From NCBI GenBank assembly GCA_959602365.1, contig CAUGSS010000004.1, positions 21,811-85,810 on the forward strand: DNA of 64,000 bases, written 5' to 3'. The first letter of the stretch is position 1, and each line of letters opens with the position of its first letter. A program made the position numbers and the translations under genes. This DNA comes from an uncultured Eubacteriales bacterium (GTDB lineage Bacteria; Bacillota; Clostridia; Oscillospirales; Oscillospiraceae). A model generated the notes under the pieces. The model was not told where the DNA came from and ran no database searches. It saw nothing but the letters and a program-made list of their open reading frames with translations. Below, piece after piece: positions 8,832 through 31,700 of the stretch.

Positions 8832-10667
8832 CTACTCCTCTTCTGTAAGATATCGTTTTGCTGCGTCCTCTTCAGACAGCAGCTCATATTGCGGCCCCCC
8901 GGTTTCGGAACGCTCAGATTCTTTTCTCCCGGAGGATTCCACCCGTGTCTGTTGGATGGCTACAGTGGCCACCGAATGGTTTACCACCCCGTGCTGATAG
9001 GGGTCGGCCCCACCCTGGACAATTTGGGTGGCGTTGGGATGCTTCTTCAAATCGTATTTCAGATCAATCACGGGAGGTTCGCCCCGAATAAAAAGAAGTG
9101 CGCAGCGGTTGTCCAGCCTGCGCACTTCATCCGGGGTCATCAGCTCCCGGCCCCCAATTTGATAATTTGTCGAATAGCTGCCGTTGCGGCCCCGGCTGCG
9201 ACCATAGGTGTTCGAGTCGATGGTCTCCTTGCCCAGCAGCTCCGAGATGTACTTGTGGGTGCTCTGCTCATTGCCGCCGAGATAGGCCAACTCGTCCAAG
9301 TTGCCCACGATGCTCTCCCAGTTATCTTTGAACAAGGCCTTCAACTGGGCCAGGTTTTGCAGGATGATGGAGACGAAGACGTTCCGTGAGCGCATGACCG
9401 ACAGGATCTTGTCGAAGTCATCGGGCAGAGCGATATTCGCAAACTCGTCCATCAGGAAGTGGACCGGCACCGGCAGAGCTCCGCCGTACTCGTCATCCGC
9501 CACCCGAAAGAGCTTCTGGAACAGCTGGGTGTAGAGCATGGAGACCAGAAAATTAAAGGACGTGTCGTTGTCCGGGATCAGGGCAAAGATGGCCGTCTTC
9601 TCCCGGCCCAGCCGGTCCAGCTCCAGCTCGTCAGTCCGGGTCAGAGCCGCCACCTCTGTCAAGTTGAACTTGTCCAGGTGGGCGATCAGCGTAATCTGTA
9701 TGGATTTCAGAGTTTTGCCCGCAGCGGCCCGGAAGTTTTTGTAGTATTTCACGGCCATACTGTCCGGGTCCTGCTGCTCCAGCTGATAGAACAGCGCCTC
9801 TACCGGAGAGGGCATGGCCTCGCCGGTGTTCTCCTCCTCGATCTTGTCGTACCGGATCAGCTCCAGCACTGTAGCGAAGTTCCGCTCCTCCGGCGGGGCC
9901 TGCTCCAGCAGGAAGAAGATCAGGGCCAGCAGGTAGATCTGGGCCGCGTTCTCCCAGAAGGGGTCCTGGGAGCCGGTGGATTTCTTGGGGGTGGTGGCCT
10001 TGAACAGGTTGGTCACCAGCTGCTGGACGTCGCTCTCCCGCTCCAGATAGACAAAGGGGTTGTAGCAGTGGGAGCGCCCCATGTGGAGCAAATCGAGCAC
10101 CTTGAGGTTGTACCCCCGCCCCACCAGGAAGTTGCCGCAGTCCCGCAAAATCTCTCCTTTGGGATCGGTCACGACAAATGAAGTGTTGCCCTGGATCAGG
10201 TTGGGCTTGACATAGCTGTAGGTTTTGCCCGCGCCAGAGCCGCCGATGACTCCGGTGTTCAGGTTGCGCCGGTGGACGCCGGTGTTCAGGGAAATGCTGA
10301 TATGGCGGGTCAAAATTTTGTTTTGCTCCCGGGGCCGGCGGCTGTACTTCCGGTTGACCTCCCCGACCTCGCCCCAATCCGCCGAGCCGTACTCCTCCCC
10401 CCGTCGGTAGTTCCGCCGGGAGGCGGAATAGACCACCATGCCCAACCCGAAGGCTGTCTCACATACCAGCACCGTCCGCAGGCTGTCCGGGCAGAGGGTG
10501 ATGCGCAGCGGGTACTGGATGGCCCGCCCAAATCCTTGCAGCATCCCCGGTATGCCGGAGGAGACATAGGGGGCGATCAGGAGGGCCAGCCACAGGACGA
10601 TAATTCCCAAGATCACCGACGGGAGCAGCAGCTGGCGTTTCTTTCTCTTATGGGACACGGTGCTCAC
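8832..10667 (-). CDS. type IV coupling protein VirD4/TraG family
   Basis: 611-aa ORF with N-terminal TM helices, Walker A GGSGAGKT and a Walker B region; full-length TraG/VirD4 similarity. Confidence 0.85.
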   Translation of the reverse strand: MSTVSHKRKKRQLLLPSVILGIIVLWLALLIAPYVSSGIPGMLQGFGRAIQYPLRITLCPDSLRTVLVCETAFGLGMVVYSASRRNYRRGEEYGSADWGEVGEVNRKYSRRPREQNKILTRHISISLNTGVHRRNLNTGVIGGSGAGKTYSYVKPNLIQGNTSFVVTDPKGEILRDCGNFLVGRGYNLKVLDLLHMGRSHCYNPFVYLERESDVQQLVTNLFKATTPKKSTGSQDPFWENAAQIYLLALIFFLLEQAPPEERNFATVLELIRYDKIEEENTGEAMPSPVEALFYQLEQQDPDSMAVKYYKNFRAAAGKTLKSIQITLIAHLDKFNLTEVAALTRTDELELDRLGREKTAIFALIPDNDTSFNFLVSMLYTQLFQKLFRVADDEYGGALPVPVHFLMDEFANIALPDDFDKILSVMRSRNVFVSIILQNLAQLKALFKDNWESIVGNLDELAYLGGNEQSTHKYISELLGKETIDSNTYGRSRGRNGSYSTNYQIGGRELMTPDEVRRLDNRCALLFIRGEPPVIDLKYDLKKHPNATQIVQGGADPYQHGVVNHSVATVAIQQTRVESSGRKESERSETGGPQYELLSEEDAAKRYLTEEE

Positions 10668-11382
10668 CTGCCCTTCGGGGTGGAAGCGTCCCTGCCGATG
10701 TCCAGGGACTGGGGCGTATAACCGGTCTCCCGGGCGATGCGGTGCAGCTGCCGTACCACGGAGGGCCGGGCCGGCATCTCGTGGACAGAAGTGGACTGGC
10801 GGTTAGGAGCCGAACTGGCGAAGCCAGGCTGTGACCGACTCTTTTTCCCGATGCCGGCCCGGCCCTTCCTCTTCTGATTTTGGGACGGATCCTGACGCTT
10901 GTTCTCCTCGGTCCGCCCCGGGGTAGGGTTTCCCTTCTGTTTTTTTCCAGCGGTTCCCGGCCTGGGTCGCTGTGGCCCTTCGCCGCCACCCGAGCGTCCA
11001 CAGGGAGCATGTTATAGCGCTCCACAATGCGGTTGATCTTGGGTGCGTCCTCTGAGCGCACCAGCAGGTCTATGACGCCGTCCTTGACCCGCTTGTCCCG
11101 GAGGGCACAGTAGGTGATGCCGTAGCGCCTGGCCTCCCTGGTAAAATCCCTCATGGACTGCTCCGGGACGGAAAATACCGTCAGCTCCTTACCCGACCGG
11201 AGCATACTGCCCAGCCGCATGGCCCCCCGGGACTTCTCATGCTGCCCGGCCCACTTGGCCATGGCCAGCAGCAGAGCGGCAATCCGCACCGCCGCCTTGC
11301 CGGAGAGCACCAGGGCGTACTCCATGCCTCTCAGGCTGATGGTAATGACCTGATCGGCTGCTTGGGTTTCCATCAAAAACAC
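10648..11382 (-). CDS. PcfB-family conjugation protein with a low-complexity basic tail
   Basis: The N-terminal 130 aa (ITISLRGMEYALVLSGKAAVRIAALLLAMAK...YGITYCALRD...VIDLLVRSEDAPKINRIVERYNML) match PcfB. The Pro/Arg/Gly-rich C-terminal 100 aa is of doubtful frame, because an A7 tract lies at about 10960. Confidence 0.5.
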   Translation of the reverse strand: MFLMETQAADQVITISLRGMEYALVLSGKAAVRIAALLLAMAKWAGQHEKSRGAMRLGSMLRSGKELTVFSVPEQSMRDFTREARRYGITYCALRDKRVKDGVIDLLVRSEDAPKINRIVERYNMLPVDARVAAKGHSDPGREPLEKNRRETLPRGGPRRTSVRIRPKIRRGRAGPASGKRVGHSLASPVRLLTASPLLSTRCRPGPPWYGSCTASPGRPVIRPSPWTSAGTLPPRRAGEHRVP

Positions 11383-11409
11383 CTCCTATTTTTATGATGT
11401 TCCAAAATG

Positions 11410-11479
11410 ACAGCCTGCCGCTGCCGGGGAATAGAAAACCCGCAGGCTCTGGCGATCTCGTCGCCCAGCCTACGGGTTA
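11410..11479. repeat. 70-nt direct repeat copy A (about 91% identical to 13718..13787)
   Basis: acagcctgccgctgccggggaatagaaaacccgcaggctctggcgatctcgtcgcccagcctacgggtta. It lies between the AAA copy 1 gene and pcfB. Confidence 0.8.
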
Positions 11480-11504
11480 TTTTTCGGTGTAGAAAGATAA
11501 ATGG

Positions 11505-12782
11505 TCATGCTCTCAGCGCTGTGATCGGGACGACAAACACTCCATCAGGCCGCTGATAGGCCGCATTTGCCATGCCGCACAGCACACACAGCACAGCAGG
11601 CGGCTTTCCATCGGGGTCTGCCTCAATCTGCCTCTGGATGGCCAACAAATTGTCCACCGCGGCATCGATCTGATTGGCCCCCAGCTTGATCTCGAAGGCA
11701 CACCACTGGCCGTCGGGCAGTTCGATCACCGCGTCGATCTCCTGATTTTTATAGTCCTGATAGTGGTAGAGATGAGCCCCAAAGGACTCGGCATAGATTC
11801 GCAGGTCCCGTTCACACAGGGCCTCAAAGAGGAACCCCAGGGTCTCCAAATTTCCCAACAGTCCAGCAGGGGTGGCCTTCAACAGGGCGCAGACCAGAGA
11901 GGGGTCGGCAAAATGCCGCTTCTCCGCCTGTTTCACCCGCACCGAGGAGCGGATACTGGAGGAAAACGGCGGCTGATTTTCCGTGAGAAACAGCCGTTGA
12001 AAGATATCCAGGTAGGCTGCCACCGTGTTGGCGTCGATGTCCTCGTCGTCCACCGCCTTGATGTCTCGCATCAGCGTCTTGTTGGTGGCAGTGGTGCTCT
12101 CGTTCCGGGCCAGGGAGCGCAGCAGCAGCCGCATCTTCTGGGTATCCCGCTTAATTCCATCGATCCGGTACACATCATCGTCGATGACGGCATCCAGATA
12201 TTGCGCTGGAAGCAAGGCCGCCTGTTCCGGCGGCAGGCCCAGGCTCCCTGGCCAGCCGCCCCGGACGATCAGTCCAATCAGCTTCTTCAAGTCCACCTCA
12301 CCGGTCATGGCGGGCGTCAGCGCTCCGTGGCACAGCTGCTCCAGCGACACCTTGCCGCTGGAGTCCCCGGACTCCCACAAGGACATCGTCCGCATCCGCA
12401 GCCGGGCAATGCGCCCCGCACCGCTGTGCAAAATGCCCTTGTGGTTGGGGGTGGCGGAACCGGTGAGGATAAACTGTCCCTTCCGGGCCGTCTGGTCCAC
12501 CTGGTAGCGCACGGCATCCCAGAGAGGCGGCACCTCCTGCCACTCGTCAATGAGGCGGGGCGTCTCCCCCTCCAGCACCAAGGCAGGGGACAGCTCTGCC
12601 AGCTGGCGGTTCTGGAAGTTGCCAGCTGGGTCGCCGAGGTAGATCTCGCTTTTGCTGTGGTAAGAGGAAGTCCAGGTCTTGCCGCACCATTTTGGCCCCT
12701 CAATGCACACGGCTCCAAAAGCGGAGAGGTATTCCTCCACCTGCCGGTCGATGATGCGGGGCCTGTAGTTTTGTCTGTCCAT
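11505..12782 (-). CDS. AAA+ ATPase with DUF4143 (COG1373 family), copy 1
   Basis: 425-aa ORF. P-loop GPKWCGKT, the domain order and length are typical of DUF4143 ATP-binding proteins. It has its own sigmaA-like promoter and an RBS (GGAGG). Confidence 0.75.
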   Translation of the reverse strand: MDRQNYRPRIIDRQVEEYLSAFGAVCIEGPKWCGKTWTSSYHSKSEIYLGDPAGNFQNRQLAELSPALVLEGETPRLIDEWQEVPPLWDAVRYQVDQTARKGQFILTGSATPNHKGILHSGAGRIARLRMRTMSLWESGDSSGKVSLEQLCHGALTPAMTGEVDLKKLIGLIVRGGWPGSLGLPPEQAALLPAQYLDAVIDDDVYRIDGIKRDTQKMRLLLRSLARNESTTATNKTLMRDIKAVDDEDIDANTVAAYLDIFQRLFLTENQPPFSSSIRSSVRVKQAEKRHFADPSLVCALLKATPAGLLGNLETLGFLFEALCERDLRIYAESFGAHLYHYQDYKNQEIDAVIELPDGQWCAFEIKLGANQIDAAVDNLLAIQRQIEADPDGKPPAVLCVLCGMANAAYQRPDGVFVVPITALRA

Positions 12783-12821
12783 GGTGTTTGCCTCCAGTCA
12801 CCGCTGTGATTCAGTGCAATT

Positions 12822-12850
12822 ATTATATTCTATTCATACGATTTTTACAA
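12822..12850 (-). promoter_or_regulatory. sigmaA-type promoter TTGTAA-N17-TATAAT driving AAA copy 1
   Basis: On the minus strand, ttgtaa + 17 nt + tataat. The RBS GGAGG lies 8 nt before the ATG at 12782. Confidence 0.5.
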
Positions 12851-12946
12851 CTCCATTCAGTTGCATTTTTTATTTCTGCTCAGTCCAATTTCGATCAAGC
12901 AGAAAATTTTTTTGTAAAGGAGCTTGATATGCTCTGAACGCAAAAA

Positions 12947-12975
12947 GGGACAGCGACTCTGCTGTTCCTTTTTTG
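12947..12975. terminator. hairpin with flanking T/A runs (bidirectional terminator after relBE)
   Basis: gggacagcgactctgctgttcc followed by tttttt on plus, and preceded by aaaaa, which is a U-run on the minus strand. It lies immediately 3-prime of the relE stop. Confidence 0.5.
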
Positions 12976-12979
12976 CGGG

Positions 12980-13312
12980 TTATTTACGTTCTGCCTGAAC
13001 GATGCCCTCGACATCCCTACCGCCGTAGAAAATTCGGATCACGGTCACTGTGCGTTTTTGGGTGTCTATTGCATAATAAACGACAAAATTGTCTACTGGC
13101 ACTCGGTGCATTTCCATGCTTCTCCACGGTTCCCAATCCACAATGGCATAGCGCGCCGGCATAAAGTCCAGAGATCGGATTTCCTTTCGGATACGGTTGA
13201 CCTGCCCTTCGGCGGTATCCGGCGCTTTGAGATCGAAGGCAATGTAGGAGTAAATCTCCCTCAGATCGTCTTTGGCTTCCGGGGAATAGATAACGGAATA
13301 GGTATCGCTCAT
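12980..13312 (-). CDS. RelE/ParE-family type II toxin
   Basis: 110-aa ORF (MSDTYSVIYSPEAKDDLREIYSYIAFDLKAP...). It overlaps the upstream antitoxin gene by 4 nt. Confidence 0.75.
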   Translation of the reverse strand: MSDTYSVIYSPEAKDDLREIYSYIAFDLKAPDTAEGQVNRIRKEIRSLDFMPARYAIVDWEPWRSMEMHRVPVDNFVVYYAIDTQKRTVTVIRIFYGGRDVEGIVQAERK

Positions 13313-13623
13313 ATACCGAACTCCCGATTTAATTCGGCATCCACCTCATCTGCCGTATAGGTTTTGCCGGATTTCATGGATTCCACGCCTTTCATAAGCT
13401 CTGCGTCCAGCTGTTCACGGCTCATTCCGCCGACTGCGGTAGGTTTTGTGGAGGGCAGGCGCAGTTCAAAGGGCATCCCCTTTTTCAGTACAATCTGGCT
13501 GTAAAGCATCTGGATTGCGCTGGATGGGGAAATTCCAAGTTGAGAAAGGATTCCTTCTGCGTTTTCTTTTAGCTCTGTATCAATACGGGCATAAACTGCG
13601 GACGTATTTGCCATATCTATCAC
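13309..13623 (-). CDS. RelB/DinJ-family antitoxin
   Basis: 104-aa ORF (ANTSAVYARIDTELKENAEGILSQLGISPSSAIQMLYSQIV) with an RHH/DinJ-like N-terminus. Confidence 0.65.
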   Translation of the reverse strand: MIDMANTSAVYARIDTELKENAEGILSQLGISPSSAIQMLYSQIVLKKGMPFELRLPSTKPTAVGGMSREQLDAELMKGVESMKSGKTYTADEVDAELNREFGI

Positions 13624-13704
13624 ACTCCTTTGGCTATATTATATCCATTTTCTCTTGCAAACGCAAGCGATTGCAAGCAATATTTAAAATTTGCTTGCTC
13701 ATCC

Positions 13705-14247
13705 CTATTCTAACGCGACATCCTGCCGCTGCCGGGGAATGGAAAACCCGTAGACTCTGGCGATCTTATCGCCCAGCCTACGGGTTACCCTTGTAATGTC
13801 GGCGCGGGTCGCCGCGCCTCGGTATAGTCTGTCCTTCAGCCACTCCCGCTGGGAAAACCCCGCGCCATCTTTATAAACACGGTATAAATAGTGGTTGGTG
13901 CCGTCGTGGTGGATGGCGTCACACCGCAGGTCGCCCAGCCGGTCTACATACCAGGTGGTGTAATCCGTATCCCCATAGAGGCAGTCCCGGATGTTGCCGC
14001 TCTGGATCTCCTTATACCCCATGTGCCTGCCATCCCAAAGGCCCAGGTCGGCAATGACCAGGATGGGCTGGTTTAGCCGCACGTTGAGGTTGACGCGCAC
14101 ATCCTCCAAATAGCAGTCGTTGAGTTCATACATGAGGGCGATCCGTTCCGACTCGGGCAGGTCCGGGTAGTCCGCCTCCAGGTCGGCCCGACAATCCTCA
14201 TAGTCCAGGTAATAGTTGCTCCAAATGATGTGTTTTTCTTCTTTCAT
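13705..14247 (-). CDS. hypothetical ICE protein (180 aa)
   Basis: Intact ORF with no recognisable motif. The last 70 nt of the gene are duplicated at 11410..11479. Confidence 0.4.
   Translation of the reverse strand: MKEEKHIIWSNYYLDYEDCRADLEADYPDLPESERIALMYELNDCYLEDVRVNLNVRLNQPILVIADLGLWDGRHMGYKEIQSGNIRDCLYGDTDYTTWYVDRLGDLRCDAIHHDGTNHYLYRVYKDGAGFSQREWLKDRLYRGAATRADITRVTRRLGDKIARVYGFSIPRQRQDVALE
13718..13787. repeat. 70-nt direct repeat copy B (3-prime coding end of the 180-aa hypothetical gene)
   Basis: acatcctgccgctgccggggaatggaaaacccgtagactctggcgatcttatcgcccagcctacgggtta. Confidence 0.8.
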
Positions 14248-14372
14248 TTTGCTTCACCTCGCTGTTTTGCCTTGGCATCTTGTATGACACCTTACTTTCA
14301 TGCAAATCTAAAATCGCACTTTAGATCTGCATAAAACTTCAGGCTCCCTATGGTGGAATGGACGCTGTGTAT

Positions 14373-15803
14373 TTATCTCAGGAATTCTCTTTGCTCGTGC
14401 TGCCGACGCAGTGCTGCCCGCACCTGTTCATTGCCCACGCCCTCCACTTTTTCCGCCACCGCCTGGTATTGATCTGCAATGCTGTCGCACAGGCGGATCT
14501 CCTTGCAGAGCTGGCGGCACTGCTGAGAGATAACACTGATCTGCTCCCGGTTGGCCTGATAGGCCTCCGGGTCTCCGCGGACGGAGGCCAAACGCTGCCG
14601 ACGGTTCAGTTCCTTCCGTCGGTCTTTTAAAGCGGCCAGCTGTATCTCGACAGCGGCCCGATAGTCCCGCAGTTCCGCCAAGGTGCCGATCTGGTGCCGG
14701 CACAACAGCCGGGCCTGCTCGGAAATCTGCCGCAGCCGCGTCAGGTCTTGTTTTAATGCCGGGCTGACCCGAGTGCTGGGCCGCTTCCGCCTGGCCGGGA
14801 GAATCCCCAGCAGGAAGCAGTAGCGGATATAGAGGGCCTGGAGTCCGTAGAGTCTCTGTTTGCCCCGTTTCCAAGGACGGAACGGGCCGCCCCGGTAGTG
14901 CATGCGGCGGGGCTTTCTCTTCAGGGGTTTCACCTGCCACTGCTCCGCGATCCTGCGCCGGATGGCCGCCCGGGTATAGTTCGCGCCGAAGTTGCGCTCC
15001 AGCCGGAGGAACCGCTGGGCTTCCGGCGCGCGCACGGACAGGTCCTTGCCCTGTTTGATCTCATAGCCCTTGGAGCGCAGGATCGTGAGGAAATGGCTGT
15101 CCGTCCTGGCCTGGCGGATGGCCGCATCCACGTCGGCCTGGACAATCTTCCGCCAGGACATCCGGCCCGGGGTGTAGTCTCGGACTTTGGACGGTTGGGG
15201 CTGGGCGATGGTGCGAAAGCCGTACTGGAGCGCCAGCTCGTCTGACACCCGCCGGAACTCGGCGTAGTCACTGGCGCTGCGGTAATACTTTTTCCCATCC
15301 ACGAAAGAGACTGTGCATACCACAAAATGATTATGGATATGGTTGGGGTGATCCACATGGGTGGCCACCAGCACTTGATACCGGTCCCCCCAGAGTTTCT
15401 GGGCCGTCTCCACGCCGATCCGGTGGATCAGGTCGGGCGGCCCCTCCCCCTGGGCGAAGGACTGGTAGCCGTGGTAGGCCGCGGTGCCGCCGGTCTTCTG
15501 GAACCTGCGCTTCGTCCAGCGCATCTCCTCCACCGCCGTGTCAGGATCGCAGTTGATCCCGGAGACCAGCTGGTGGACGATCCCGCTGCCGTCCTTCCAG
15601 GTGGTGGCGCTGTCCCGGGCGGCGTAGTCCGCCACGGCGTGCAGGTCGTAGACAGAGAACTCGCCCTCGGTGCCGCCCTGCTGCTCCATGGTCTCTGAGA
15701 CCGTCTTTTGATCCTGGGCGTACCGGGTCTTTTGGGCGTTGCCGGCGTAGCGCACCACCGCCGCCACATCCCCCTTTACCCGCCACAGGCTGGTTACTGG
15801 CAT
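14373..15803 (-). CDS. MobA/VirD2-type relaxase (relaxase/mobilization nuclease domain)
   Basis: His-triad motif HVDHPNHIHNHFVV and a long coiled-coil C-terminus. The start is taken at Met99 of the track ORF (MPVTSLW), preceded by the RBS AAAGGGAGGA. The upstream extension overlapping the AAA gene is rejected. Confidence 0.8.
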   Translation of the reverse strand: MPVTSLWRVKGDVAAVVRYAGNAQKTRYAQDQKTVSETMEQQGGTEGEFSVYDLHAVADYAARDSATTWKDGSGIVHQLVSGINCDPDTAVEEMRWTKRRFQKTGGTAAYHGYQSFAQGEGPPDLIHRIGVETAQKLWGDRYQVLVATHVDHPNHIHNHFVVCTVSFVDGKKYYRSASDYAEFRRVSDELALQYGFRTIAQPQPSKVRDYTPGRMSWRKIVQADVDAAIRQARTDSHFLTILRSKGYEIKQGKDLSVRAPEAQRFLRLERNFGANYTRAAIRRRIAEQWQVKPLKRKPRRMHYRGGPFRPWKRGKQRLYGLQALYIRYCFLLGILPARRKRPSTRVSPALKQDLTRLRQISEQARLLCRHQIGTLAELRDYRAAVEIQLAALKDRRKELNRRQRLASVRGDPEAYQANREQISVISQQCRQLCKEIRLCDSIADQYQAVAEKVEGVGNEQVRAALRRQHEQREFLR

Positions 15804-15897: not shown

Positions 15898-17190
15898 TCA
15901 CAGAAGCTCTTTCGTTTTCCGGGCCAGATAGAGCGGAAGATTGGTAATATCTCCATCCTTCCGATAGCCCCGCTTTGAAAACCGCAGCGCGTGCTCAGGA
16001 TGGTGCGCGGCGATATACCGCTTAAAGGACGGCGCCGACTTGTTTTCTCCGCCCTTGGCTTCCACAGGGATGATCTCCATCCCGTTTTGCAGCACAAAGT
16101 CTATTTCCATCTGCTTATCTGAATAATAGCGCGGCGCAACTTCAAACTGTCCCAGCAGCTGCTGCAGAACGAAGTTTTCCGTCAGAGGGCCTTTGAATTG
16201 AAAGTCGGCTTTCAACAATATCGCGCTGTTATCCACGCCGGCCATATGCTTCAGCAGACCTGTATCAAACAGGAGTAACTTGAACTGATCCAGCTTGTCA
16301 AAGGCCGCCAGAGGATGCTCCATTTTAGAGACGTTGTAGACCCGGTTCAGCATTCCGGCGGAGACCAGCCACTCGATCGCCTCTTCAAAATCTCTGGCCC
16401 TGCCCCCTTCCCGGACTGCTCCGTACATAAATTTTTCATTCGGCTTGGCGAGCTGTGAGACAATGCTGCGAAATACCATCAGGATGCGCCCGCTGTTCAC
16501 CTTGCCGTTGTGCTTGGAAAAGTCATTCTCATAGACTTCCACCAGCTCTTGCTGAATCTGAGAAATCTTCGCCGGATCCTTGTGCTTGATCCAGGATGCG
16601 ACGCACTCGGGCATGCCGCCGATGATGAGATAGTAGTCATAGGCCTCCAGCAGCCGCTTGTGAAAAATCTCCTCTATTGGCTGCTGCTTCTGAATCTCCT
16701 CGTAGTACAGGTAGAGGGAGGGATCAATGGCCTCCAAAAATTCGTCAAAGGTCAGCGGTGTGATCTCCAGCAGGTTGACCATTCCCACGGGGTAGGACTT
16801 CGGCTGTGCCAGCAGGGTACCCAGCAGGCTGCCGGCCGAAATAACATGATACTCATTGGCCCTCTCTTTGAAATATTTCAGGGCGTTCAACGCCTCCGGG
16901 CACTCCTGGATCTCATCAAAAATGATCAGGGTCTTGCCCGGAAGAATTTTTTGGCCGGAGATCAGCGAAAGCAATTCGATGATCCGATGGGGATTTTTAT
17001 TCGCCTGGAAAATCGAATTCAGCTCGTCCTCTTCGTCGAAGTTGAAATAGGCATAGCTGTCATAGAAATTCTGCCCGAACTCCTTCATGAGCCAGGTCTT
17101 CCCGACCTGCCGGGCGCCCTTCAGCACCATGGGCTTGCGATCCTCGCTGTTCTTCCAGGCAATCAGGTCCTGTATTGCGTTACGCTTCAT
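15898..17190 (-). CDS. AAA+ ATPase with DUF4143, copy 2
   Basis: 430-aa ORF with P-loop GARQVGKTW and Walker B IIFDEIQ. Its GC content is lower than the flanks, and it sits between mobC and the relaxase. Confidence 0.75.
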   Translation of the reverse strand: MKRNAIQDLIAWKNSEDRKPMVLKGARQVGKTWLMKEFGQNFYDSYAYFNFDEEDELNSIFQANKNPHRIIELLSLISGQKILPGKTLIIFDEIQECPEALNALKYFKERANEYHVISAGSLLGTLLAQPKSYPVGMVNLLEITPLTFDEFLEAIDPSLYLYYEEIQKQQPIEEIFHKRLLEAYDYYLIIGGMPECVASWIKHKDPAKISQIQQELVEVYENDFSKHNGKVNSGRILMVFRSIVSQLAKPNEKFMYGAVREGGRARDFEEAIEWLVSAGMLNRVYNVSKMEHPLAAFDKLDQFKLLLFDTGLLKHMAGVDNSAILLKADFQFKGPLTENFVLQQLLGQFEVAPRYYSDKQMEIDFVLQNGMEIIPVEAKGGENKSAPSFKRYIAAHHPEHALRFSKRGYRKDGDITNLPLYLARKTKELL

Positions 17191-17446: not shown

Positions 17447-17836
17447 CTAGACCTTACCATCGGAGCTTTTGTGGCGCTTTTTTCCTGGTGGCGCATCTGC
17501 ATTTGTGCGCAGGGGCGCATCCCTCATGACTGCGGCTATGATTGCCTTCATCTGGCGGATAATCTCCTGCCGCAGCGTCTCCAGCCGTGCGGCGCGGGGA
17601 AGCTCGTCCCGCTGGATCAGAGCGTCGCGCAGCAGCGTCACCTCAGCCTTCAGCCGGGAGATCTCGGCCATCATGGCCTGATATTCCGCCGGCGGAAGCG
17701 GCTGCGGCATTTTGCCGGAGATCAGTACTCGGAGATAAGCGGAGCGGCTTAAGCCGCTTTTTACGACCTCTCTATCCAGTTGGATAAGCTCGTCAGCACT
17801 CAGGTAGCATTGCACTTTTACCTGCCGTTTTCTCAA
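17447..17836 (-). CDS. MobC-like relaxosome accessory protein (ribbon-helix-helix)
   Basis: 129-aa ORF (KVQCYLSADELIQLDREVVKSGLSRSAYLRVLISGKMP...) matching the MobC pattern. Confidence 0.65.
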   Translation of the reverse strand: MRKRQVKVQCYLSADELIQLDREVVKSGLSRSAYLRVLISGKMPQPLPPAEYQAMMAEISRLKAEVTLLRDALIQRDELPRAARLETLRQEIIRQMKAIIAAVMRDAPLRTNADAPPGKKRHKSSDGKV

Positions 17837-17896: not shown

Positions 17897-17932
17897 GTGG
17901 ATGTACTCATCCTAAAATGGGAGTACATCCAC
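17897..17932. promoter_or_regulatory. candidate oriT inverted repeat upstream of mobC
   Basis: Perfect 12-bp arms gtggatgtactc / gagtacatccac with a 12-nt spacer, plus the nearby palindrome ggggtgtcccc. It lies in the 240-bp gap next to the mobC start. Confidence 0.35.
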
Positions 17933-18078
17933 GATGCTTGCTCAGAATATTGCATAGCAGGATCTGCATACAGATACTAACACATAATAACTGTTTTAGA
18001 AGACCTTTAATAGTTTTACTTGATACGAGCTTCTCGCCATGCTATGATTTTCTTCCAGAAGGGAGGTCTCGTTCTCGT

Positions 18079-20972: not shown

Positions 20973-21144
20973 AGTATCACCTCCTTTCGGCGGTCTAAAA
21001 AGTGTTGATTTTATAATAAAAGGTGGCCTCTATGCCGCCCGGCTACCTCGGAGGGGAAAACCTATGGGCGTTGACCTTTCGACCGACTGTGGATGAAAAA
21101 CATGGAATTTTCGACTCCTTTTGGGTCAGTTTCGAGTATGAAAA

Positions 21145-21172
21145 CACACCATAGGGTTGAACCTATGGTGTG
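21145..21172. promoter_or_regulatory. 11-bp perfect inverted repeat (cacaccatagg N6 cctatggtgtg), operator-like
   Basis: It lies in the divergent intergenic region between the wHTH gene (20972) and the Cys-protein/dual-NTPase operon (21309). A half-site copy cctatggg is at 21061. Confidence 0.4.
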
Positions 21173-21308
21173 CAAGGATTGTGTTATAGACCATTTTTAT
21201 TTATGTTTTGCAATTGTTTTTTGCCTATTAATCAGCTATAATTTTCCTACAGACTAATTGTGACAATTTTTTCGTAGACTATCTCTTACATTTAAGGTGG
21301 AGTGTTCT

Positions 21309-21734
21309 ATGGCTCTTCGAGCGGATCAGCGAGATTATAAGAACGCATTTCAAAAGCATCTGCATGCCTATACTAACTGGAAGGCTACTGGTAGTAGTGC
21401 AAGTAAACGGCTTATTTTAGCATATTGCGTGGAATGTGGGCTAAAATATGTAATTATGAAACAAGAAAACATATTTCGAACATCCGAAGCCCAAGATGAT
21501 ATAGCAAAAGAACTAAGTTCACATGACTATCGTAAGTTGTTAAGGCGATTAAAGCAAGCCGGAATATATGAATTTCCCACGATAAAAACTAATCACTGCG
21601 AAAATGTCCACCCAGAAACTTATCATGAATTTTGCAGATATTGTATTAAGCCGGAAGATAAGTACGTAGGAACTATCCAACAATACGACAAGACATTTGA
21701 AGAAATTGTTGAATGGATTGAGGAGCACATATGA
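21309..21734 (+). CDS. small Cys-containing protein (two CxxC pairs, putative Zn-ribbon); partner of the downstream dual-NTPase gene
   Basis: Start at the ATG 6 nt after the RBS AAGGTGGAG; the GTG start in the track lies inside that RBS. It contains CVEC and CRYC. The region is AT-rich, and its stop overlaps the next start (ATGA). Confidence 0.5.
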   Translation: MALRADQRDYKNAFQKHLHAYTNWKATGSSASKRLILAYCVECGLKYVIMKQENIFRTSEAQDDIAKELSSHDYRKLLRRLKQAGIYEFPTIKTNHCENVHPETYHEFCRYCIKPEDKYVGTIQQYDKTFEEIVEWIEEHI

Positions 21735-24355
21735 AAATGAAGTTTTACACTTGGAAAGATATTGAACGATATTTTTTATTATACCGTGCTTCATGGGAAG
21801 ATACGATCGGCTCTATTGACGTATACCCTACTGATATAACAGTATATGCAAGACAAGGTACATGTGAAAAGGCATGGGAAACCATTCAAACGATGTTTGG
21901 TGCAAACTATAATCCTCAAAAAAAAGAAATCAAATTGGACATTGGAAATTATGCATTGCCTATCGATGTTCAAGAAAGCGAAAGTGTGCCAAAAGGCAAG
22001 AAAGTATTGCCTCTATTTGAAAATGTTCTGTATCAAACATCATCATATCCGACTCAAAAGCCTGAGCCATTAAGTCATCAAATAATCGCTTTTCATTCAT
22101 ACAAAGGCGGCGTGGGTAGAACATTGTCCCTTTTGGCGTTTGCTAAGGCTTGGTCAGCAGTTTTTGGTAATAGCGACACTAAAAGGCTCTTAATTATAGA
22201 TTCTGATATAGAAGCTCCAGGCATGACTTGGCTTCAAGAAAATCGTTCCGATGACACATTTAGCTATTTAGATTTGTTAGCACTGATTCAAGATAAAAAA
22301 GATGTTGATGAAATAGTTGATTTAGCTTGTTCAAAGTTGAAATTGTCTACGATAACTGTTGAAACAACTTCTCGAAAGATTGAGCATGTGTTTATTCCCA
22401 CTTATCGTTATGAGGAACAGCTAATTGATCTATACGCAACGCCGGAGAGCATTGTAAATAGTAAGGGAAAAGAATATATTCTTGCTACAGTTATATCTAA
22501 AATCTGTGAGCGTTTGGGTTTATGTGCTGCTTTAGTCGATTTGCGTGCAGGAATCAGTGAATACTCGTCTACGCTTTTGTTAGATTCTCGTGTTAAAAAG
22601 TACTTGGTAACATCTACTTCAACACAATCAATTCTCGGTACTCAAATGCTTTTAAAGTATTTGTTAAAGGGACTTAATATAGGAGAATATACTGTACTGC
22701 CTGAAATTTTCCTGAATATGATTCCAGATGCACTGTCAGAAAATGATAAAAGTGATATAATTGGAGAATTGCTTCAGTGCTATGAGCAAGGGGGGGGCGT
22801 AGACTCCGATCTGCAGCTTACTGATAATGTTATTACTGAATTGCCTTTTGCAAGTGAACTAATCCATCTAACCTCTATGCATCAGATCTTCCAGAACTTA
22901 AATGGGAGAGGACTTTATCTTAATCTTGAGGAGTTGATAAAACAGAATTATATCGATGAAAAGCCTCTTGATGAAAGTAGTATCAAGGAAGAAAGCCGAG
23001 ATACTATTCTAAAAAAAATAAATGAATTGGCCTCTTCCCAGTTAACTGCAGAGGGAAATGCAGATTTTGATGTTCTCATGACAGAAGCTCTAAAGTATCT
23101 TTCCAGAAAATATAATGATTCAGTCCCAGCAACTGTTGTAATGGGGGCTAAAGGATCAGGAAAGACCTTTTTGTATCGGAAGATGAGTGAATCTAGAGAG
23201 TGGACAGCCTTTTGTAAAAGCATAGGTGAGCCTGTAAACGATACTGCTACTGGGTTCTTTCTGCCGGTTATTGCTTCAAGAAATTCCACTCAATTTATGA
23301 AGACATTAAAATCGTGTATTAATAATTTAAACAATCACATTTCTGGCTGTAGCGTAAGCGAAAGTATATTTTGGGATAATTCCACAAAATTAGAGCGCGA
23401 AAAAAATCAGACTACGGATTGGCTCTATTTTTGGGAATTATTGCTTGTAAAATCTATATACCCTCAGTACTCTAGTTTACAAGAAGTCAACAGTGAACTG
23501 GAAGCCAAAAAGAAAAAAGTGATTTTTTTGATTGATGGGCTTGAAGATATATTTGCACATATTTCCGCTGACGAAAACGAGCAAACTGCAGTAAAGGCTT
23601 TGTGCCAAGACATTGTTGCACAATTGATAGCTAAATACTCCAACATTGGAATAATTGTATTTTTGCGGCGTGATATGGCACAATCATCTATTACAGTTAA
23701 CTTTAAACAGTTTATGCAAGCCAATGGACAGGCAGAGTTAAAATGGTCGTCAAGCGATGCACTAAGACTTGTAGTTTGGCTTGTTTCAAAAGCTGTGCCT
23801 CGATTCTACGAAGATGTAGAAGAGATAGAACAAGCATCTCAAAAAGTCATTGATGATGCCCTTGTACGTTTGTGGGGAACTAAACTCGGAAAATCTTCAT
23901 CTAATGAAGCATATTCATCTAGGTGGATTTTAGCAGCATTATCTGATTTTAACGGGCAGTTGCAAGCAAGAGATATTATTCGATTTTTACAACATGCGAC
24001 AGCATCTCCAAAGAAAGCAATTTATAATGATCGCATTATTATGCCAACAGAAATCAGGGAGGCAGTTTCTACTTGCTCAACGGAAAAAATTGAAGAGGTA
24101 AAGCAGGAATATGCGACGCTTAAGCCGATTTTTGAAAGACTTCAAGATTTACCAGAGGAGCATAGAACTCTCCCGCTATTGCCTGAGTATGCAAAACTAA
24201 CTAGTGACGAGGAACGATATATGATCCGAGAGGGATATTTAAAAAGGGAAGGAGATAAGTTTTATCTGCCGGAAATCATTCGCCACGCACTGAGATTCAA
24301 ATATGGGAAAGGAGCTCGTCCAAAAGTTTTAGCACTCACATTAAAGAAATCATAA
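21731..24355 (+). CDS. 874-aa multidomain NTPase: unknown N-terminal domain + KGGVGR-variant ParA/MinD-like ATPase + NACHT-like STAND NTPase + helical C-terminus
   Basis: Deviant Walker A SYKGGVGRT at nt 22103..22120 and a ParA-like Walker B LLIIDSD. A second P-loop, GAKGSGKT, lies at nt 23144..23167, with a NACHT-type Walker B VIFLIDGLED at 23519..23545. The coding sequence is about 38% GC. Confidence 0.65.
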   Translation: MKMKFYTWKDIERYFLLYRASWEDTIGSIDVYPTDITVYARQGTCEKAWETIQTMFGANYNPQKKEIKLDIGNYALPIDVQESESVPKGKKVLPLFENVLYQTSSYPTQKPEPLSHQIIAFHSYKGGVGRTLSLLAFAKAWSAVFGNSDTKRLLIIDSDIEAPGMTWLQENRSDDTFSYLDLLALIQDKKDVDEIVDLACSKLKLSTITVETTSRKIEHVFIPTYRYEEQLIDLYATPESIVNSKGKEYILATVISKICERLGLCAALVDLRAGISEYSSTLLLDSRVKKYLVTSTSTQSILGTQMLLKYLLKGLNIGEYTVLPEIFLNMIPDALSENDKSDIIGELLQCYEQGGGVDSDLQLTDNVITELPFASELIHLTSMHQIFQNLNGRGLYLNLEELIKQNYIDEKPLDESSIKEESRDTILKKINELASSQLTAEGNADFDVLMTEALKYLSRKYNDSVPATVVMGAKGSGKTFLYRKMSESREWTAFCKSIGEPVNDTATGFFLPVIASRNSTQFMKTLKSCINNLNNHISGCSVSESIFWDNSTKLEREKNQTTDWLYFWELLLVKSIYPQYSSLQEVNSELEAKKKKVIFLIDGLEDIFAHISADENEQTAVKALCQDIVAQLIAKYSNIGIIVFLRRDMAQSSITVNFKQFMQANGQAELKWSSSDALRLVVWLVSKAVPRFYEDVEEIEQASQKVIDDALVRLWGTKLGKSSSNEAYSSRWILAALSDFNGQLQARDIIRFLQHATASPKKAIYNDRIIMPTEIREAVSTCSTEKIEEVKQEYATLKPIFERLQDLPEEHRTLPLLPEYAKLTSDEERYMIREGYLKREGDKFYLPEIIRHALRFKYGKGARPKVLALTLKKS

Positions 24356-24437
24356 TCATTCGGACTATAGATAGCATAATAAAATTTTGTGATGGAGCGC
24401 CATAGCTATAGCTTTTATGCTTATGGCGCTCCACTAT

Positions 24438-25169: not shown

Positions 25170-26618
25170 TTATTCCATACCACGGTAGCCGTGCTTTTCT
25201 GCATGGCCAAGCAGATAAAGAAACGCGAAGGCCGGGATACGGATCAAATCTTTGCCGCTTTTCGTATTGTGGACGCCAAAGTCATCGGCAGTTTTGGTCA
25301 CCACGATGGAGGCTGCGGCTTCTCCGCTCAACTCTACGATCGCAGAATCATCCGGGATAGGGGCGCCCTCCCGGTATTTCACTTCGATGAGGATGTTCTT
25401 GGAATTGGCATATTCCACCACAACATCGACTTCTTTTCCTCGTTTGCCGCCGCGATAATATCCTACCGACGCAGCCTGCTGATAATAAAATGCAGCTACA
25501 TGCTTGTAAACTGCGGTTTCCACCACCTTCCCCATCTCGACCGGATCGCTCAGCATAGAGTCGTCCATTAAAACCGCATTGCGGATCGCCGCATCAGCAA
25601 TATAGATTTTAGGACTCGCTTTCAGGACCTTTTTTCCCCCCATATTGACGGGCCAGCTCTGATAAATTAAGTTAGCACTTTCCAGATATTCAATATAATT
25701 TTCTACGGTAGGTCTGGAAACACCATTCAGTTCCTTCGCAATCGCTTCGATAGAGACGATCTCAGAAGAAACATTGCACAGATAAAGAAAGATTCGCTCC
25801 AACTCTGTCGCATTGCGGATCTTATAAAGGGAGGGCAGATCCCGCTTGAGTACTTTGTCTACCACATCTTCCCGCATAATCTGCTGGGCCAGAATGTCGT
25901 TATCAGCCAGAGCCAGTTCGGGAAACCCGCCCACTTGCAGATAGCGGTTAAAGTGATTCTGCACCTTGGAGAGCTGCAGCATGATCTGGGTGCGTTCCTG
26001 CTGGGTCTTATATACCAGCGGTGTGATCTTTAAATTGTCCGGCAGGTCGGGACGATCCACATTCAGCAGTTCACAGTACTCATAGAAGGACAGCGTGGGA
26101 ACCTGGATCGCCGACCATCGACCAGCGCCGCTCTCCTGGCTCCCTTTGATCAAAACCGGACTGGCCGAGCCGGTAGCCACCATTTTGGTGTCCGGCTGCA
26201 TATCGTAGATCGTCTTCAGCCATTTGTCCCAATCCTGCGCATACTGGATCTCGTCAAAAAAGTAGTAGACATCCTGCTCCGGATAGATATTTTCGTGATA
26301 GCACTCCAGAATCTCATTCATGGCGCTTAACTTCAGCATGGGATGATCCATGGAAATAAAGACGATCTTCTGAGGCGGCACGCCGTTTTGGAGCAGAGCC
26401 TCGATCATCTGGTACTGTATGGTGGTCTTTCCAACTCGTCTGGTTCCTGTTAAAACCACTGTGCGCCGGATGTCGGTCTGATTCAGGCGCTTCATGGCCT
26501 CGTAATAGGCAAAGCGCTTATAAGTTTTGGACAGTTTGGGGTTTACGACTCCGGTTTTCCACCAGGGGTTGTAGGAAACCAGTACTTTCAGCAATCCTTC
26601 CTTGCTGATGATGGCCAT
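25170..26618 (-). CDS. AAA+ ATPase with DUF4143, copy 3
   Basis: 482-aa ORF with P-loop GTRRVGKTT and Walker B YFFDEIQ. It lies in the low-GC island and is followed by a hairpin at 25119..25155. Confidence 0.75.
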   Translation of the reverse strand: MAIISKEGLLKVLVSYNPWWKTGVVNPKLSKTYKRFAYYEAMKRLNQTDIRRTVVLTGTRRVGKTTIQYQMIEALLQNGVPPQKIVFISMDHPMLKLSAMNEILECYHENIYPEQDVYYFFDEIQYAQDWDKWLKTIYDMQPDTKMVATGSASPVLIKGSQESGAGRWSAIQVPTLSFYEYCELLNVDRPDLPDNLKITPLVYKTQQERTQIMLQLSKVQNHFNRYLQVGGFPELALADNDILAQQIMREDVVDKVLKRDLPSLYKIRNATELERIFLYLCNVSSEIVSIEAIAKELNGVSRPTVENYIEYLESANLIYQSWPVNMGGKKVLKASPKIYIADAAIRNAVLMDDSMLSDPVEMGKVVETAVYKHVAAFYYQQAASVGYYRGGKRGKEVDVVVEYANSKNILIEVKYREGAPIPDDSAIVELSGEAAASIVVTKTADDFGVHNTKSGKDLIRIPAFAFLYLLGHAEKHGYRGME

Positions 26619-28787: not shown

Positions 28788-31700
28788 TTACTGCTCGGAA
28801 CTGCTCCCTTTGCGGTGCTCCTTGCACGCCAACAAGACGGCCATACAACCACAGGCGGCCAACAGGATAGCAACACAGATCAGGATCGGAGCGGCATCCC
28901 CGGTCTCGGGTGCGGCCGGCGGAACTATAATTTCCACTGTCTGACCCTCATCGTTCCAGTCTTGATGCACCGCCACAGGCTGGACTTCCACATCCTCGCC
29001 CTGGTATAGCGCCTCAAATACCACCAGCTGGTGCCCGGCCAGGCTGCTGGCATCGAAGGTGAAGGAGACCTCCACGCTACCCTCCGCGGCTTCCGCCACA
29101 AAGGCAGTCACAGTGGTGATGGGCTGCCCCTGGGCGTCGGTCACCGCCAGGCCGGTCGTCTTGTCCATCAGAGTACCCACCAGCGTATAGGTCTGACCTG
29201 CCCGGAGATTGGTGTAGGTCACGGTGTCCAGGATAGTCACGCTGGAACCAGCGGTGGCCCTGTGGGTGCCGCTGGCCTGATCCACCGCGTTGGTGTGGAT
29301 GCCGGGGAAACTCACGCTCTGATCTGCATCATTTATATCCGCATGGGTGCCGACTTCGATGCCCTTGTAACGCAGGGACTCAAATGCTACTACAGTTTCA
29401 CCAGCCAGCAGGGAACCATCAAAGCTGAAGGTCAGCGTCACGCTGCCCTCGCTCTTTTCAGTGGTGAAGGTAGTGGAGGCAGCCACAGGATTGCCCTGGG
29501 CATCCACCAACAGCTCGCCGGTGGACCGGACGTACAGGACGCCATTGACCGTGTACTGCTCTCCCACGATCAGGTTGGAGTAGAACACCTTGTCCAGGAT
29601 AGTGACCGTCTCATCCGCAATGGAGGTGTGGTCACCGGACTCAGCGTCAATGGCGGTGGTGGCAATTTCAGGAATGTGCACCGTCTGATCCGGGTCGGCA
29701 AGGTCGGTGTGGGTGGCATACACGGTATCGTGCATGCTTAGAAACTCATAGATCACCAGCGTTTTGCCCCCGTGAATGGATCCGTCGAACACAAAGGTGT
29801 TGTCTACGGTGCCATCCGCCGTATCTGCCCGGAAGGAAGTTGTGGCGGTAATGGGATTGCCGTTGGCGTCATACACCGGCAGCCCTGTGTCAGCATCCAT
29901 CAAGGTACCAGTGAGCTGATAATTTCGCCCGGGCTGGAGATTAGTATAGGACACGGCATCCACAATGGTGACCGGGTTCTGGGCATATGCAACATGATCG
30001 CCGGTTTCCACATTGCTGGCATGAGTGTCAATGGCAGGGAAGTGCACCGTCTGCTCCTGGTCCGCCAAATCGGCGTGAACAAGAACCGGTTCATCGCTCA
30101 TTTCCTCACCATGGCCCGTATACAAGGTCTGACAGATGACCACAGACTGGCCTGCCAAGGCGCTGCCGTCCAGTACGAACTCCATGCGCAGGGAACCGCT
30201 GCGGGAGGTGGGCGTGAACTCCCGGGTAACAGAGATGGGGTTGCCCTCGGCATCCGTCAGCACCGCGCCGGTGGCCTGATCGACCAGGGTGCCCACCAAG
30301 GTGTAGTCAGTATTGGCCTGCAGGTTTTCATAGCGCACAGTGTCAATGACCACGGTACCGCTTTCAGCAGGTCCCCACCGAGAGTTGGTGGACTCCAACA
30401 CAGCGCTGGTACTCATGCGCATCTGGAAATTCTCAATGTTATTGAAGTCCACAGTATAGCCGTCTCTGGAGATTGTCAGAGTACCAGTCCACAGGATATA
30501 ATCCTCATTTGCCTCACATGGCTGCTCCTCCAGGGTGTAAGTGCCGTAGGGCAGGGCACCGACAGAATCATCGGGTTCACCAGCGCCGAACCAAAGGCCA
30601 CTGCCCACCGTACCGCCGTTGGTGTCCTGGGTGTGGGGAATCCAGGAGGCGGCGGAGCTGTAATAGCCGTTTTCATCGGTCACAAAGTAGTGGGTCTCGC
30701 CGGTGGCGTCATTGGTGATTTGAAAGGGCACGCCTGCCAGAGCAGTCTGTGTATCCCCGTCCACCTTGCGCAGCTCGAAATCGCCTCGGATGATGCGGTT
30801 GGAGATGGAGTGGTCAAAGTCGGCCAGATCCACCACCACGCCGTCTTCCACGATGTCAAACGCCTGGGAGGTAATGCCGTCAGAGGTGTAACCGGAGGGC
30901 GGGACGGCCTCCCGCACCTCATAGTGGCCGTAGGGGAGTAAATCAGCGGCAGTCTCAAACAGGCCGTTCTCATCGGTATACCCGGTATAGATCACCTGGC
31001 CATCGGTATAGGTGATGCCATTGACCACCACGTTACCTCCGGTGCGGTTGACGATCTCAAACTTCGCACCAGCCACAGTAGCCTCGCCCTGGCCCACATG
31101 TTCCTGGCTCTCAATGTCATACTTGTACAGCTTGACTCCGCCACGAATGACCTCATTAGAGATGGCGTGCTCGAAGTCAGTCAGATCCACAATCACACCA
31201 TTTTGCTCAATGGAGAAAATCTGAGAAGTGGTGCCGTCTCCGGTGTAGCCGGTGGGAGGGGTGACCTCGCGTACTTCATAGGTGCCGTATGGGAGCAGAT
31301 CTGCTGCCGTTTGGAACAGGCCGCTGTCGTCTGTCTTGGCGGCGTACACAACCTCGCCAGAAGCATAGCTCACACCATTGACCAGCACCGCATTGGCGCT
31401 GCGGTTGATAATCTCAAATACAGCACCCTGGACAGTTGCACCGCCCTGGGGCGTATGCGACTCCGTCTCAACGTCGTACTTGTACAGCTTGACGCCGCCC
31501 CGGATGACCTCGTTGGAAATGGAGTTTTCAGGGGCGGTTAGATCCACGATGACGCCGTGCTCGGAGATGTCAAATACCCGGGAGATGGTGCCGCCAATGG
31601 TGTAGCCTGTGGGCGGGGTCTGCTCCCGCAGCTCATAATGGCCTGCGGACAGCAGGTCGGAAGTGGTCTGGAACAGGCCGGAGGCATCTGTGCCGCCGGT

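Follow-up and report, generated by a model that had tools for sequence, protein, structure and literature searches.

The Locus and Its Duplicated Gene End

The 64,000-nucleotide (nt) stretch of DNA considered here, referred to as the window (contig CAUGSS010000004.1 of assembly GCA_959602365.1, positions 21,811 to 85,810), comes from an uncultured Eubacteriales bacterium and carries an integrative and conjugative element (ICE) with a 2.3-kb insert between two of its backbone genes (Table 1). On the minus strand, the insert follows a gene for a protein of 180 amino acids (aa), contains a relB and relE/parE pair and a gene for a DUF4143 ATPase, and is followed by pcfB and the gene for the coupling protein. 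The genes next in line encode type IV secretion functions, i.e., a VirB4-like ATPase, a lysozyme/M23 peptidase, and a Toprim protein (as annotated with Pfam in contig L019, which is 96.7% identical), and the insertion therefore lies within the transfer region of a conjugative element. An earlier reading made from the sequence without database searches (the sequence-only reading) had already named the DUF4143 ATPase, relBE, and pcfB, and these identities were confirmed by profile matches. RelB scored 46.5 bits against its Pfam family (3.4e-12, cut-off 22.4) and 60.7 bits against TIGR02384 (cut-off 45.65), the toxin scored 52.1 bits against ParE_toxin of Pfam (9.9e-14, cut-off 23) and fell below the cut-off of TIGR02385 (RelE_StbE), and the ATPase matched the PDC-S01 model PDLC04790 (3.9e-62), AAA_14 (1.6e-11), and DUF4143 (1.7e-31). 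The promoter of the ATPase gene, the GGAGG preceding its ATG, and the relE terminator, all pointed out earlier, are present as sequence matches, and the promoter-like region of relB begins directly past the stop codon of the 180-aa gene. Searches by sequence returned no solved structure for the ATPase or the 180-aa protein, and no known RNA families were found within 10.5-18.5 kb of the window.

The insert, with relB, relE/parE, and the ATPase gene, is bracketed by two copies of the 180-aa gene's 3' end. A repeat scan of the window paired 11400-11479 (within copy A, next to pcfB) with 13708-13787 (copy B) as an 80-nt direct repeat of 88% identity, and BLAST gave 91.5% identity over a 71-nt core at 11409-11479. 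The sequence-only reading had described a repeat of 70 nt and about 91% identity, which holds for the core, but the full repeat is 78-80 nt long. Both copies are in frame with the end of the 180-aa gene and the repeat runs to its last sense codon, so that scan, BLAST, and frame agree on a duplicated gene end upstream of pcfB, as had been proposed. A 44-nt probe from the repeat had only these two matches in 64 kb with up to 3 mismatches (0 expected from shuffles) and the whole-window scan found no dispersed copies; a common repeat spread through the genome, which the earlier reading had kept in mind, is thus not what is seen within the window. The copies differ at 10 of their 80 positions, with the changes scattered over positions 20-77 (the last of them 3 nt from the repeat end), the initial 19 nt identical, and the similarity ending at 13708/11400.

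Copy B, translated as TRRLGDKIARVYGFSIPRQRQDVALE followed by a stop, is the working end of the 180-aa gene. Copy A encodes TRRLGDEIARACGFSIPRQRQAVILEHHKNRRCF followed by a stop, is identical in translation to the C-terminus of a 188-aa allele (P0266), and contains the GGAGG ribosome-binding site of pcfB, with its own TGA stop codon overlapping the pcfB ATG. The stop codon of the ATPase gene is in frame with this orphan tail (11480-11510), and a single stop parts the two frames, which is probably a coincidence.

Cassette-Free and Cassette-Bearing Relatives

Relatives lacking the cassette, in which the 180-aa-family gene would stand directly upstream of pcfB, had been predicted, and that arrangement was found in five independent metagenome contigs (L018 and L038-L041). 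In L018, a human-gut metagenome contig recovered with PcfB as the anchor, a gene copy of 93% identity is followed at once by pcfB. In L038-L041 it is the 188-aa allele that adjoins pcfB, with its stop codon overlapping the pcfB ATG, and the 90% cluster of the 180-aa protein has two members that are 188 aa long and end in TRRLGDEIARACGFSIPRQRQAVILEHHKNRRCF. The pcfB-proximal copy in the window, the translation of which is the C-terminus of P0266, does then preserve the tail of the gene present before the insertion, as the earlier reading had it. Its description as decayed is refuted: positions 11477-11380 of the window are identical to the empty sites of L038 and L039 at 98 of 98 nt, and therefore copy A is the intact tail of a living allele rather than a decayed duplicate.

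Comparison of the window with L038 gave no identity upstream of ~14268, 91%, 97%, and 96% in successive thirds of the body of the 180-aa gene, 98.8% in tail A, and 99.5% in the first 200 nt of the pcfB region. Tail B has 10 differences from tail A in 80 positions, the adjacent gene body 10 from the empty-site allele in 307 (Fisher p = 0.0026), and tail A together with the 5' end of pcfB 2 from that allele in 280, and copies A and B are therefore of different ancestries. An exchange between ICE variants, which the sequence-only reading had offered as its alternative, fits two copies from different alleles. In the cassette-free elements, homology to the window starts only ~20 nt before the 180-aa gene, which is why that gene itself may belong to the imported block. 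Upstream of it, where the window has the relaxase gene, these elements have a DUF7007-like gene with no counterpart anywhere in the window, and so they are not simple deletion derivatives of the ICE in the window. The ICE is a mosaic to either side of the 180-aa gene. One of the cassette-free contigs, L038, also has a 93-nt in-frame deletion in pcfB (~1190) relative to other relatives.

At least 19 contigs from other samples (L011-L016, L019-L028, and L050-L052) have the same gene order, both repeat copies, and the same junction, at 94-100% nt identity, and the junction common to all of these carriers therefore points to one inherited event that spread with the element. The cargo is hence absent from five contigs and present in at least 19 between the same backbone genes, with sharp boundaries at 11479/11480 and ~13705-13708. 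Only one type of cargo was found at this position among the relatives examined; contig L055 was considered as a second type and rejected, being colinear with L053. The earlier suggestion of a hot spot implied repeated use of the site, which was not seen among those relatives, and the term goes beyond the data because no other cargo was found there. Exact look-ups of the PcfB and ATPase sequences of the window retrieved no record, the relatives having come from homolog searches. Ten species-representative genomes that matched the 180-aa protein were set aside as uninformative on the junction, as they have homologs of 56-72% identity in another backbone (a 311-aa gene, then the 180-aa homolog, then a giant SNF2 protein). 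The sole match in a plasmid collection was to the 180-aa gene (79%), in a Subdoligranulum record with another backbone, and no relatives were found among viral contigs.

A few carriers have peculiarities of their own. From its position 4378 (window 12721), L050 leaves a stretch that is 99.9% identical to window 17098-12721 for unrelated DNA encoding a deaminase, a large helicase, and GreA, the switch being 20 codons into the ATPase gene; this is due either to truncation of the element or to a chimeric assembly. In L021 (8647-11339), L022, and L023, a group II intron-type open reading frame (ORF) of 608 aa (RVT_1 and HNH) splits the coupling-protein gene. In the same three contigs, the 180-aa gene is interrupted by nonsense mutations at two places, codon 9 (TGG to TGA) and about codon 60 (CAG to TAG) (L021 4540-5079), and therefore is seemingly dispensable in part of the ICE lineage.

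A Composite Cassette

The two modules of the cassette have different distributions. The ATPase has thousands of close relatives, of which those of 97-100% identity are in the ICE lineage of the window, and those of 89-90% identity are in an unrelated setting without relBE and without ICE genes, in the order SLH-domain protein, ATPase, 70-aa gene, DUF960, GATase-like, HTH_17, and serine recombinase. At the DNA level, the ATPase module is 77% similar to that setting over window 12872-11518. Its promoter is conserved in three different upstream contexts, in which homology starts at ~12866-12872, and some 20-25 nt past the ATPase stop codon can still be aligned with the context represented by L029 (where GAAATTTCATTGATA follows the ATPase gene) before the similarity ends a few nt short of the hairpin described below. 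At high identity, relBE was seen only in the ICE lineage of the window, and RelE homologs in the plasmid collection reached 31-42% identity at most. The cassette is consequently not shown to travel as a unit, as the ATPase occurs without relBE elsewhere, and travel of this sort, which the sequence-only reading had wished to check, was not borne out: what recurs in other places is the ATPase gene with its promoter.

The 2.3-kb insert encodes RelB, RelE, and the ATPase-nuclease, and no recombinase, transposase, or terminal inverted repeats were found in it. Two further ATPases of the AAA_14 and DUF4143 (PDC-S01) type are encoded on the minus strand at 15898-17190 and 25170-26618, giving three distant paralogs within 15 kb. 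The first of these, between nikA and the relaxase gene, is conserved in all relatives, is only a distant paralog of the cassette ATPase, and has no flanking duplication around it.

A Hairpin at the Junction

Both copies of the repeat contain an imperfect palindrome. Folded as DNA in alleles A, B, L018, and L038, it had a dG of -15 to -18 kcal/mol and a z of -4.6 to -7.4, and 0 of 200 shuffles were as stable; for the palindrome of copy B, the values were -15.5 to -18 kcal/mol and -5.5 to -7.4. In copy A read as RNA, the hairpin is followed by UUUUCUAUU. Tail A and L038 differ at one base only, which adjoins the stem on its outer side, and contig L017 begins exactly at the stem base at 11477. 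The sequences joined there share only 'TA', a chance identity, and the 180-aa gene provides a homologous anchor. The hairpin is mostly kept in the family of 78% protein identity, with one stem pair being A-T, G.T, or G-C across alleles, and is absent from homologs of 72% identity or less that keep the peptide motif TRRLGD..VYG. Because these distant homologs have the motif without the hairpin, the hairpin is not forced by the protein sequence, and the proposal that it is a by-product of the motif was rejected. Its travelling with the ATPase was likewise rejected, there being no such sequence in the other contexts of the ATPase.

A role as the main origin of transfer (oriT) of the ICE is unlikely, as a conventional oriT candidate lies upstream of nikA. 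It has a perfect 12-bp inverted repeat (17897-17932) and, nearby (17897-17970), the motif ATCCTG, which is the nick core of the MOBP type. In the spacer between the relaxase gene and the 180-aa gene there is a 17-nt inverted repeat (14296-14336), and the 10-mer TATGCAGATC is common to this repeat and the oriT candidate.

Palindromes being unstable in general, the hairpin could plausibly be a place where breaks tend to occur. A more far-reaching idea, which we consider very improbable, is that this hairpin within the last 40 codons is a true recombination site at which single-strand, hairpin-directed strand transfer, e.g., by the relaxase of the element itself acting in trans, captures or exchanges cargo. 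If so, it would be a recombinase-free counterpart of the integron attC, and the tail copies would be equivalent to attL and attR; no positive evidence for such a site was found beyond the position of the junction.

Origin of the Arrangement

We read the region, with a probability of roughly 0.6, as what a single past event of illegitimate recombination left behind, the partners being two related conjugative elements with different alleles of the ~180-aa gene. One parent would have been like L038, with a DUF7007-like gene, the 188-aa allele, and pcfB, tightly coupled through the overlap of stop and start codons. The other would have supplied a block in which a complete 180-aa allele was accompanied by relBE, together with the promoter/operator and terminator of that pair, and by the DUF4143 ATPase module with its own promoter. 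In a non-homologous join exactly at the base of the hairpin, codon 155 of the resident 188-aa allele would have been linked to DNA ending 25 nt past the ATPase stop codon, and the upstream side would have been settled by a homologous crossover, as in homology-facilitated illegitimate recombination, or else by a simple exchange of arms. There would then be two tail copies, from two different alleles, because the last 34 codons of the resident one survive, and these were most probably retained as holders of the ribosome-binding site and start context of pcfB, the translation signals of which lie inside them. One illegitimate join fits because there are no recombinase, transposase, or terminal repeats, the alleles differ, and there is a single junction lineage; the order of events and the type of recombination are what we infer from this pattern. 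The sequence-only reading had likewise seen a cassette scar at the 3' end of a gene, and the empty sites and the preserved tail bear it out, but the decay does not stand, travel as a unit is not supported, and the empty elements are not otherwise the same.

Several points weigh against this reconstruction. The donor arrangement, i.e., the 180-aa allele, relBE, and the ATPase gene followed by something other than the orphan tail, was not found among the contigs examined. All empty-site contigs are short (1.3-2.1 kb), which puts the relaxase side of that parent beyond reach. The placement of the junction at the hairpin base was noticed post hoc, and a random break would fall within 2 nt of either base in ~2% of cases. 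The divergence along the 180-aa gene is uneven (the 91%, 97%, and 96% given above, then 87.5% in the tail), which could be compatible with the tail alone having arrived with the cassette. As for the cargo, PDC-S01 is among the most abundant defense candidates and is without experimental validation (PMC12988326).

The composite nature of the cassette, in which each module has its own promoter and boundaries, could also have arisen in steps, with relBE entering first behind the 180-aa gene and making the tail duplication, and the ATPase module joining afterwards, past the relE terminator and ahead of the orphan tail; the hairpin base would therefore be a weak spot used twice. The occurrence of the ATPase module alone elsewhere and the coincidence of its right edge with the start of the orphan tail speak for such a build-up. 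It is nonetheless unlikely, as no relative with relBE but without the ATPase gene was found between the gene and pcfB, both modules are in all of the at least 19 carriers, and L050 loses homology inside the ATPase gene rather than at the edge of the module. An uneven tail is what site-specific capture predicts, in which a circular cassette carrying its own gene tail, att-like and centered on the hairpin, would integrate into the resident tail by a crossover in the first 19 identical nt, catalyzed in trans by a single-strand hairpin recombinase, either the ICE relaxase or another one. In its favor, those 19 nt make up the hairpin's 5' arm, the boundary coincides with the hairpin base, divergence is greater in tail B than in the neighboring gene body, and the hairpin is kept down to 78% protein identity with its varying stem pair and is missing where the peptide motif alone remains. 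Yet there is no recombinase in the cassette and no hairpin or tail sequence beside the ATPase gene in its other contexts, the conventional oriT candidate is the one upstream of nikA, and there is one junction type only, without excised or hybrid-tail forms among the contigs examined and without a second cargo (L055 being colinear), so that we regard such capture as improbable.

The target-insert-target structure, and the shared point at which the similarity of the copies ends, would be expected if an 80-nt staggered break had been filled in on both sides to yield a long target-site duplication, the identical copies of which later diverged. Decay after duplication would not be expected to leave copy A 100% identical to living empty-site alleles and copy B 12.5% different, and no transposase, terminal repeats, or short identical duplications are present, making a duplication of this kind extremely improbable. 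It is just as hard to credit that the cassette-bearing form is ancestral and the empty-site contigs are secondary deletions. Direct repeats of 80 nt with 19-nt identical runs could support rare deletion, but the empty-site elements have the DUF7007-like gene upstream rather than the relaxase gene, their gene body differs from that of the window, and their tails are pure A-type or of a third type and not B/A hybrids.

Comparison with Known Systems

One historical illegitimate join of this sort has precedents. In the T6SS (type VI secretion system) effector-immunity arrays of Vibrio cholerae, and in Rhs and contact-dependent inhibition (CDI) loci, orphan 3' gene ends have been explained by homology-facilitated illegitimate recombination (PMC5361080), a process of low frequency that has been seen after conjugation (PMC3240628). 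As in those systems, a complete allele appears to have come in with new genes while the resident 3' end was displaced downstream as a stub, the two copies are from different alleles, and no dedicated recombinase is involved. Unlike them, the shared gene here is a conjugative backbone gene rather than a toxin gene, the stub contains the ribosome-binding site of the next operon and its start overlap, and one round of displacement is seen.

The hot spots of SXT/R391 ICEs carry toxin-antitoxin (TA) and defense genes between conserved backbone genes. Variable ICE cargo with such genes is a general theme (PMC8791490), and the TA pair and defense candidate in the window are similarly present or absent between conserved transfer genes, with sharp boundaries. 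The element in the window differs in being a gut Firmicutes element unrelated to SXT, and in having its site marked by a duplicated gene tail. Integrative elements that target the 3' ends of genes carry a replacement 3' end, and their attL and attR are imperfect direct repeats. The locus resembles these in that its imperfect direct repeats are a gene 3' end, the upstream gene is intact, and there is a 19-nt identical stretch at one end, and is unlike them in that the inserted DNA encodes no integrase, signs of excision are missing, and there is a single junction lineage.

Cargo and Significance

Type II TA systems on mobile elements are known to stabilize them by post-segregational killing. 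The relBE pair has the traits of that class (RelB/DinJ-RelE/ParE), i.e., the antitoxin gene is first, the genes overlap by 4 nt, the scores are above curated cut-offs, and there is a palindrome in the promoter region, and by this resemblance it most likely stabilizes the element as an addiction module; unlike known plasmid systems of the type, its nearest plasmid homologs are the distant ones noted above. The ATPase-nuclease is a candidate defense gene. Proteins of the PDC-S01 type are ATPases fused to a PD-(D/E)XK nuclease (PMC3424549), and the window protein conforms to this in its model match, its two-domain architecture, and its being a single gene with its own promoter. It departs from a typical entry in that its element has three distant paralogs, and an anti-phage role is a candidate one only. 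No terminator was found between the ATPase gene and pcfB, and transcription from the ATPase promoter may therefore now pass through the orphan tail into pcfB and the coupling-protein gene.

The event is clearly of a known kind, the acquisition of cargo by mosaic recombination with an orphan gene end left behind, which is ordinary and well documented, and current understanding is unchanged by it. The locus is a natural example of how conjugative elements of gut Firmicutes gain stabilizing and candidate defense genes with their coupled transfer operons unbroken. With the exact junction recovered, along with both alleles and the site in occupied and in empty form, it can serve as a marker for tracing the ICE lineage in metagenomes, and it offers a well-defined case on which to test illegitimate recombination at hairpins. 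In addition, the recurring module of ATPase and promoter and the three paralogs make the ICE a reasonable place to test the role of PDC-S01 in defense against phages and mobile DNA.

Other Features of the Element

The coordinates of the features of the region are given in Table 1.

Table 1. Features between the coupling-protein and NikA-like genes of the window
Feature	Position	Strand	Remarks
Coupling protein	8832-10667	-	
pcfB (DUF3801)	10648-11373	-	First gene of the pcfB/coupling-protein operon; frameshifted past codon ~144
Copy A	11373-11479	-	Orphan 3' end of 188-aa allele, 34 codons and stop
Hairpin in copy A	11437-11478		Equivalent to that in copy B; first stem base (ACCCG, 11477) is where sequence from the pcfB-side parent begins
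3' flank of ATPase module	11480-11504	-	25 nt; ends at right junction, 11479/11480
Cassette ATPase (AAA_14 and DUF4143)	11505-12782	-	425 aa; fused PD-(D/E)XK-type nuclease domain; PADLOC candidate PDC-S01
ATPase promoter	12822-12872	-	TTGTAA-N17-TATAAT (12850-12822); left edge of the separately occurring ATPase module
Terminator-like hairpin and T-run	12940-12975	-	3' of relE
ParE/RelE toxin	12980-13312	-	110 aa; 4-nt overlap with relB
RelB/DinJ antitoxin	13309-13614	-	101 aa from ATG at 13614; RelB identity confirmed for 13309-13623; gene calls in L013 and L019
relB promoter-like site	13624-13704	-	TTGCGT-N17-TATAAT and palindrome (GCAAGCAA...TTGCTTGC); left end of inserted DNA
180-aa gene	13705-14247	-	Without Pfam family; belongs to a backbone gene family, with ~2400 homologs, that is very abundant in conjugative elements of gut Firmicutes
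Copy B	13708-13787	-	Working 3' end of 180-aa gene, last 26 codons; allele ends in KIARVYGFSIPRQRQDVALE and stop
Hairpin in copy B	13745-13786		Imperfect palindrome, ~12+6 bp; repeat boundary at hairpin base
Spacer, relaxase/180-aa gene	14248-14372	-	Homology to cassette-free elements stops at ~14268; second mosaic boundary
MobA/VirD2-type relaxase	14373-15803	-	
Second ATPase paralog (AAA_14 and DUF4143)	15898-17190	-	
NikA-like	17447-17836	-	

The pcfB of the window has one G fewer at 10940-10950 (minus strand), with CTGGA-AAAAAAC where L019, L021, L024, and L038 have CTGGAGAAAAAAC, and its last ~95 codons are consequently out of frame and read as an Arg/Pro/Ser-rich tail; the missing G is either a real mutation beside the poly-A run or a sequencing error. 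Farther along the window, a low-GC island at 21000-24400 (37% versus ~58%) includes an 874-aa ORF with weak matches to STAND/NACHT NTPases and, going by these matches, is probably further cargo of the defense type. Within a 1593-aa ORF (28788-33569), three copies of a 71-nt segment spaced by 357 nt (31078-31862) are consistent with the repeated domains of a surface protein.

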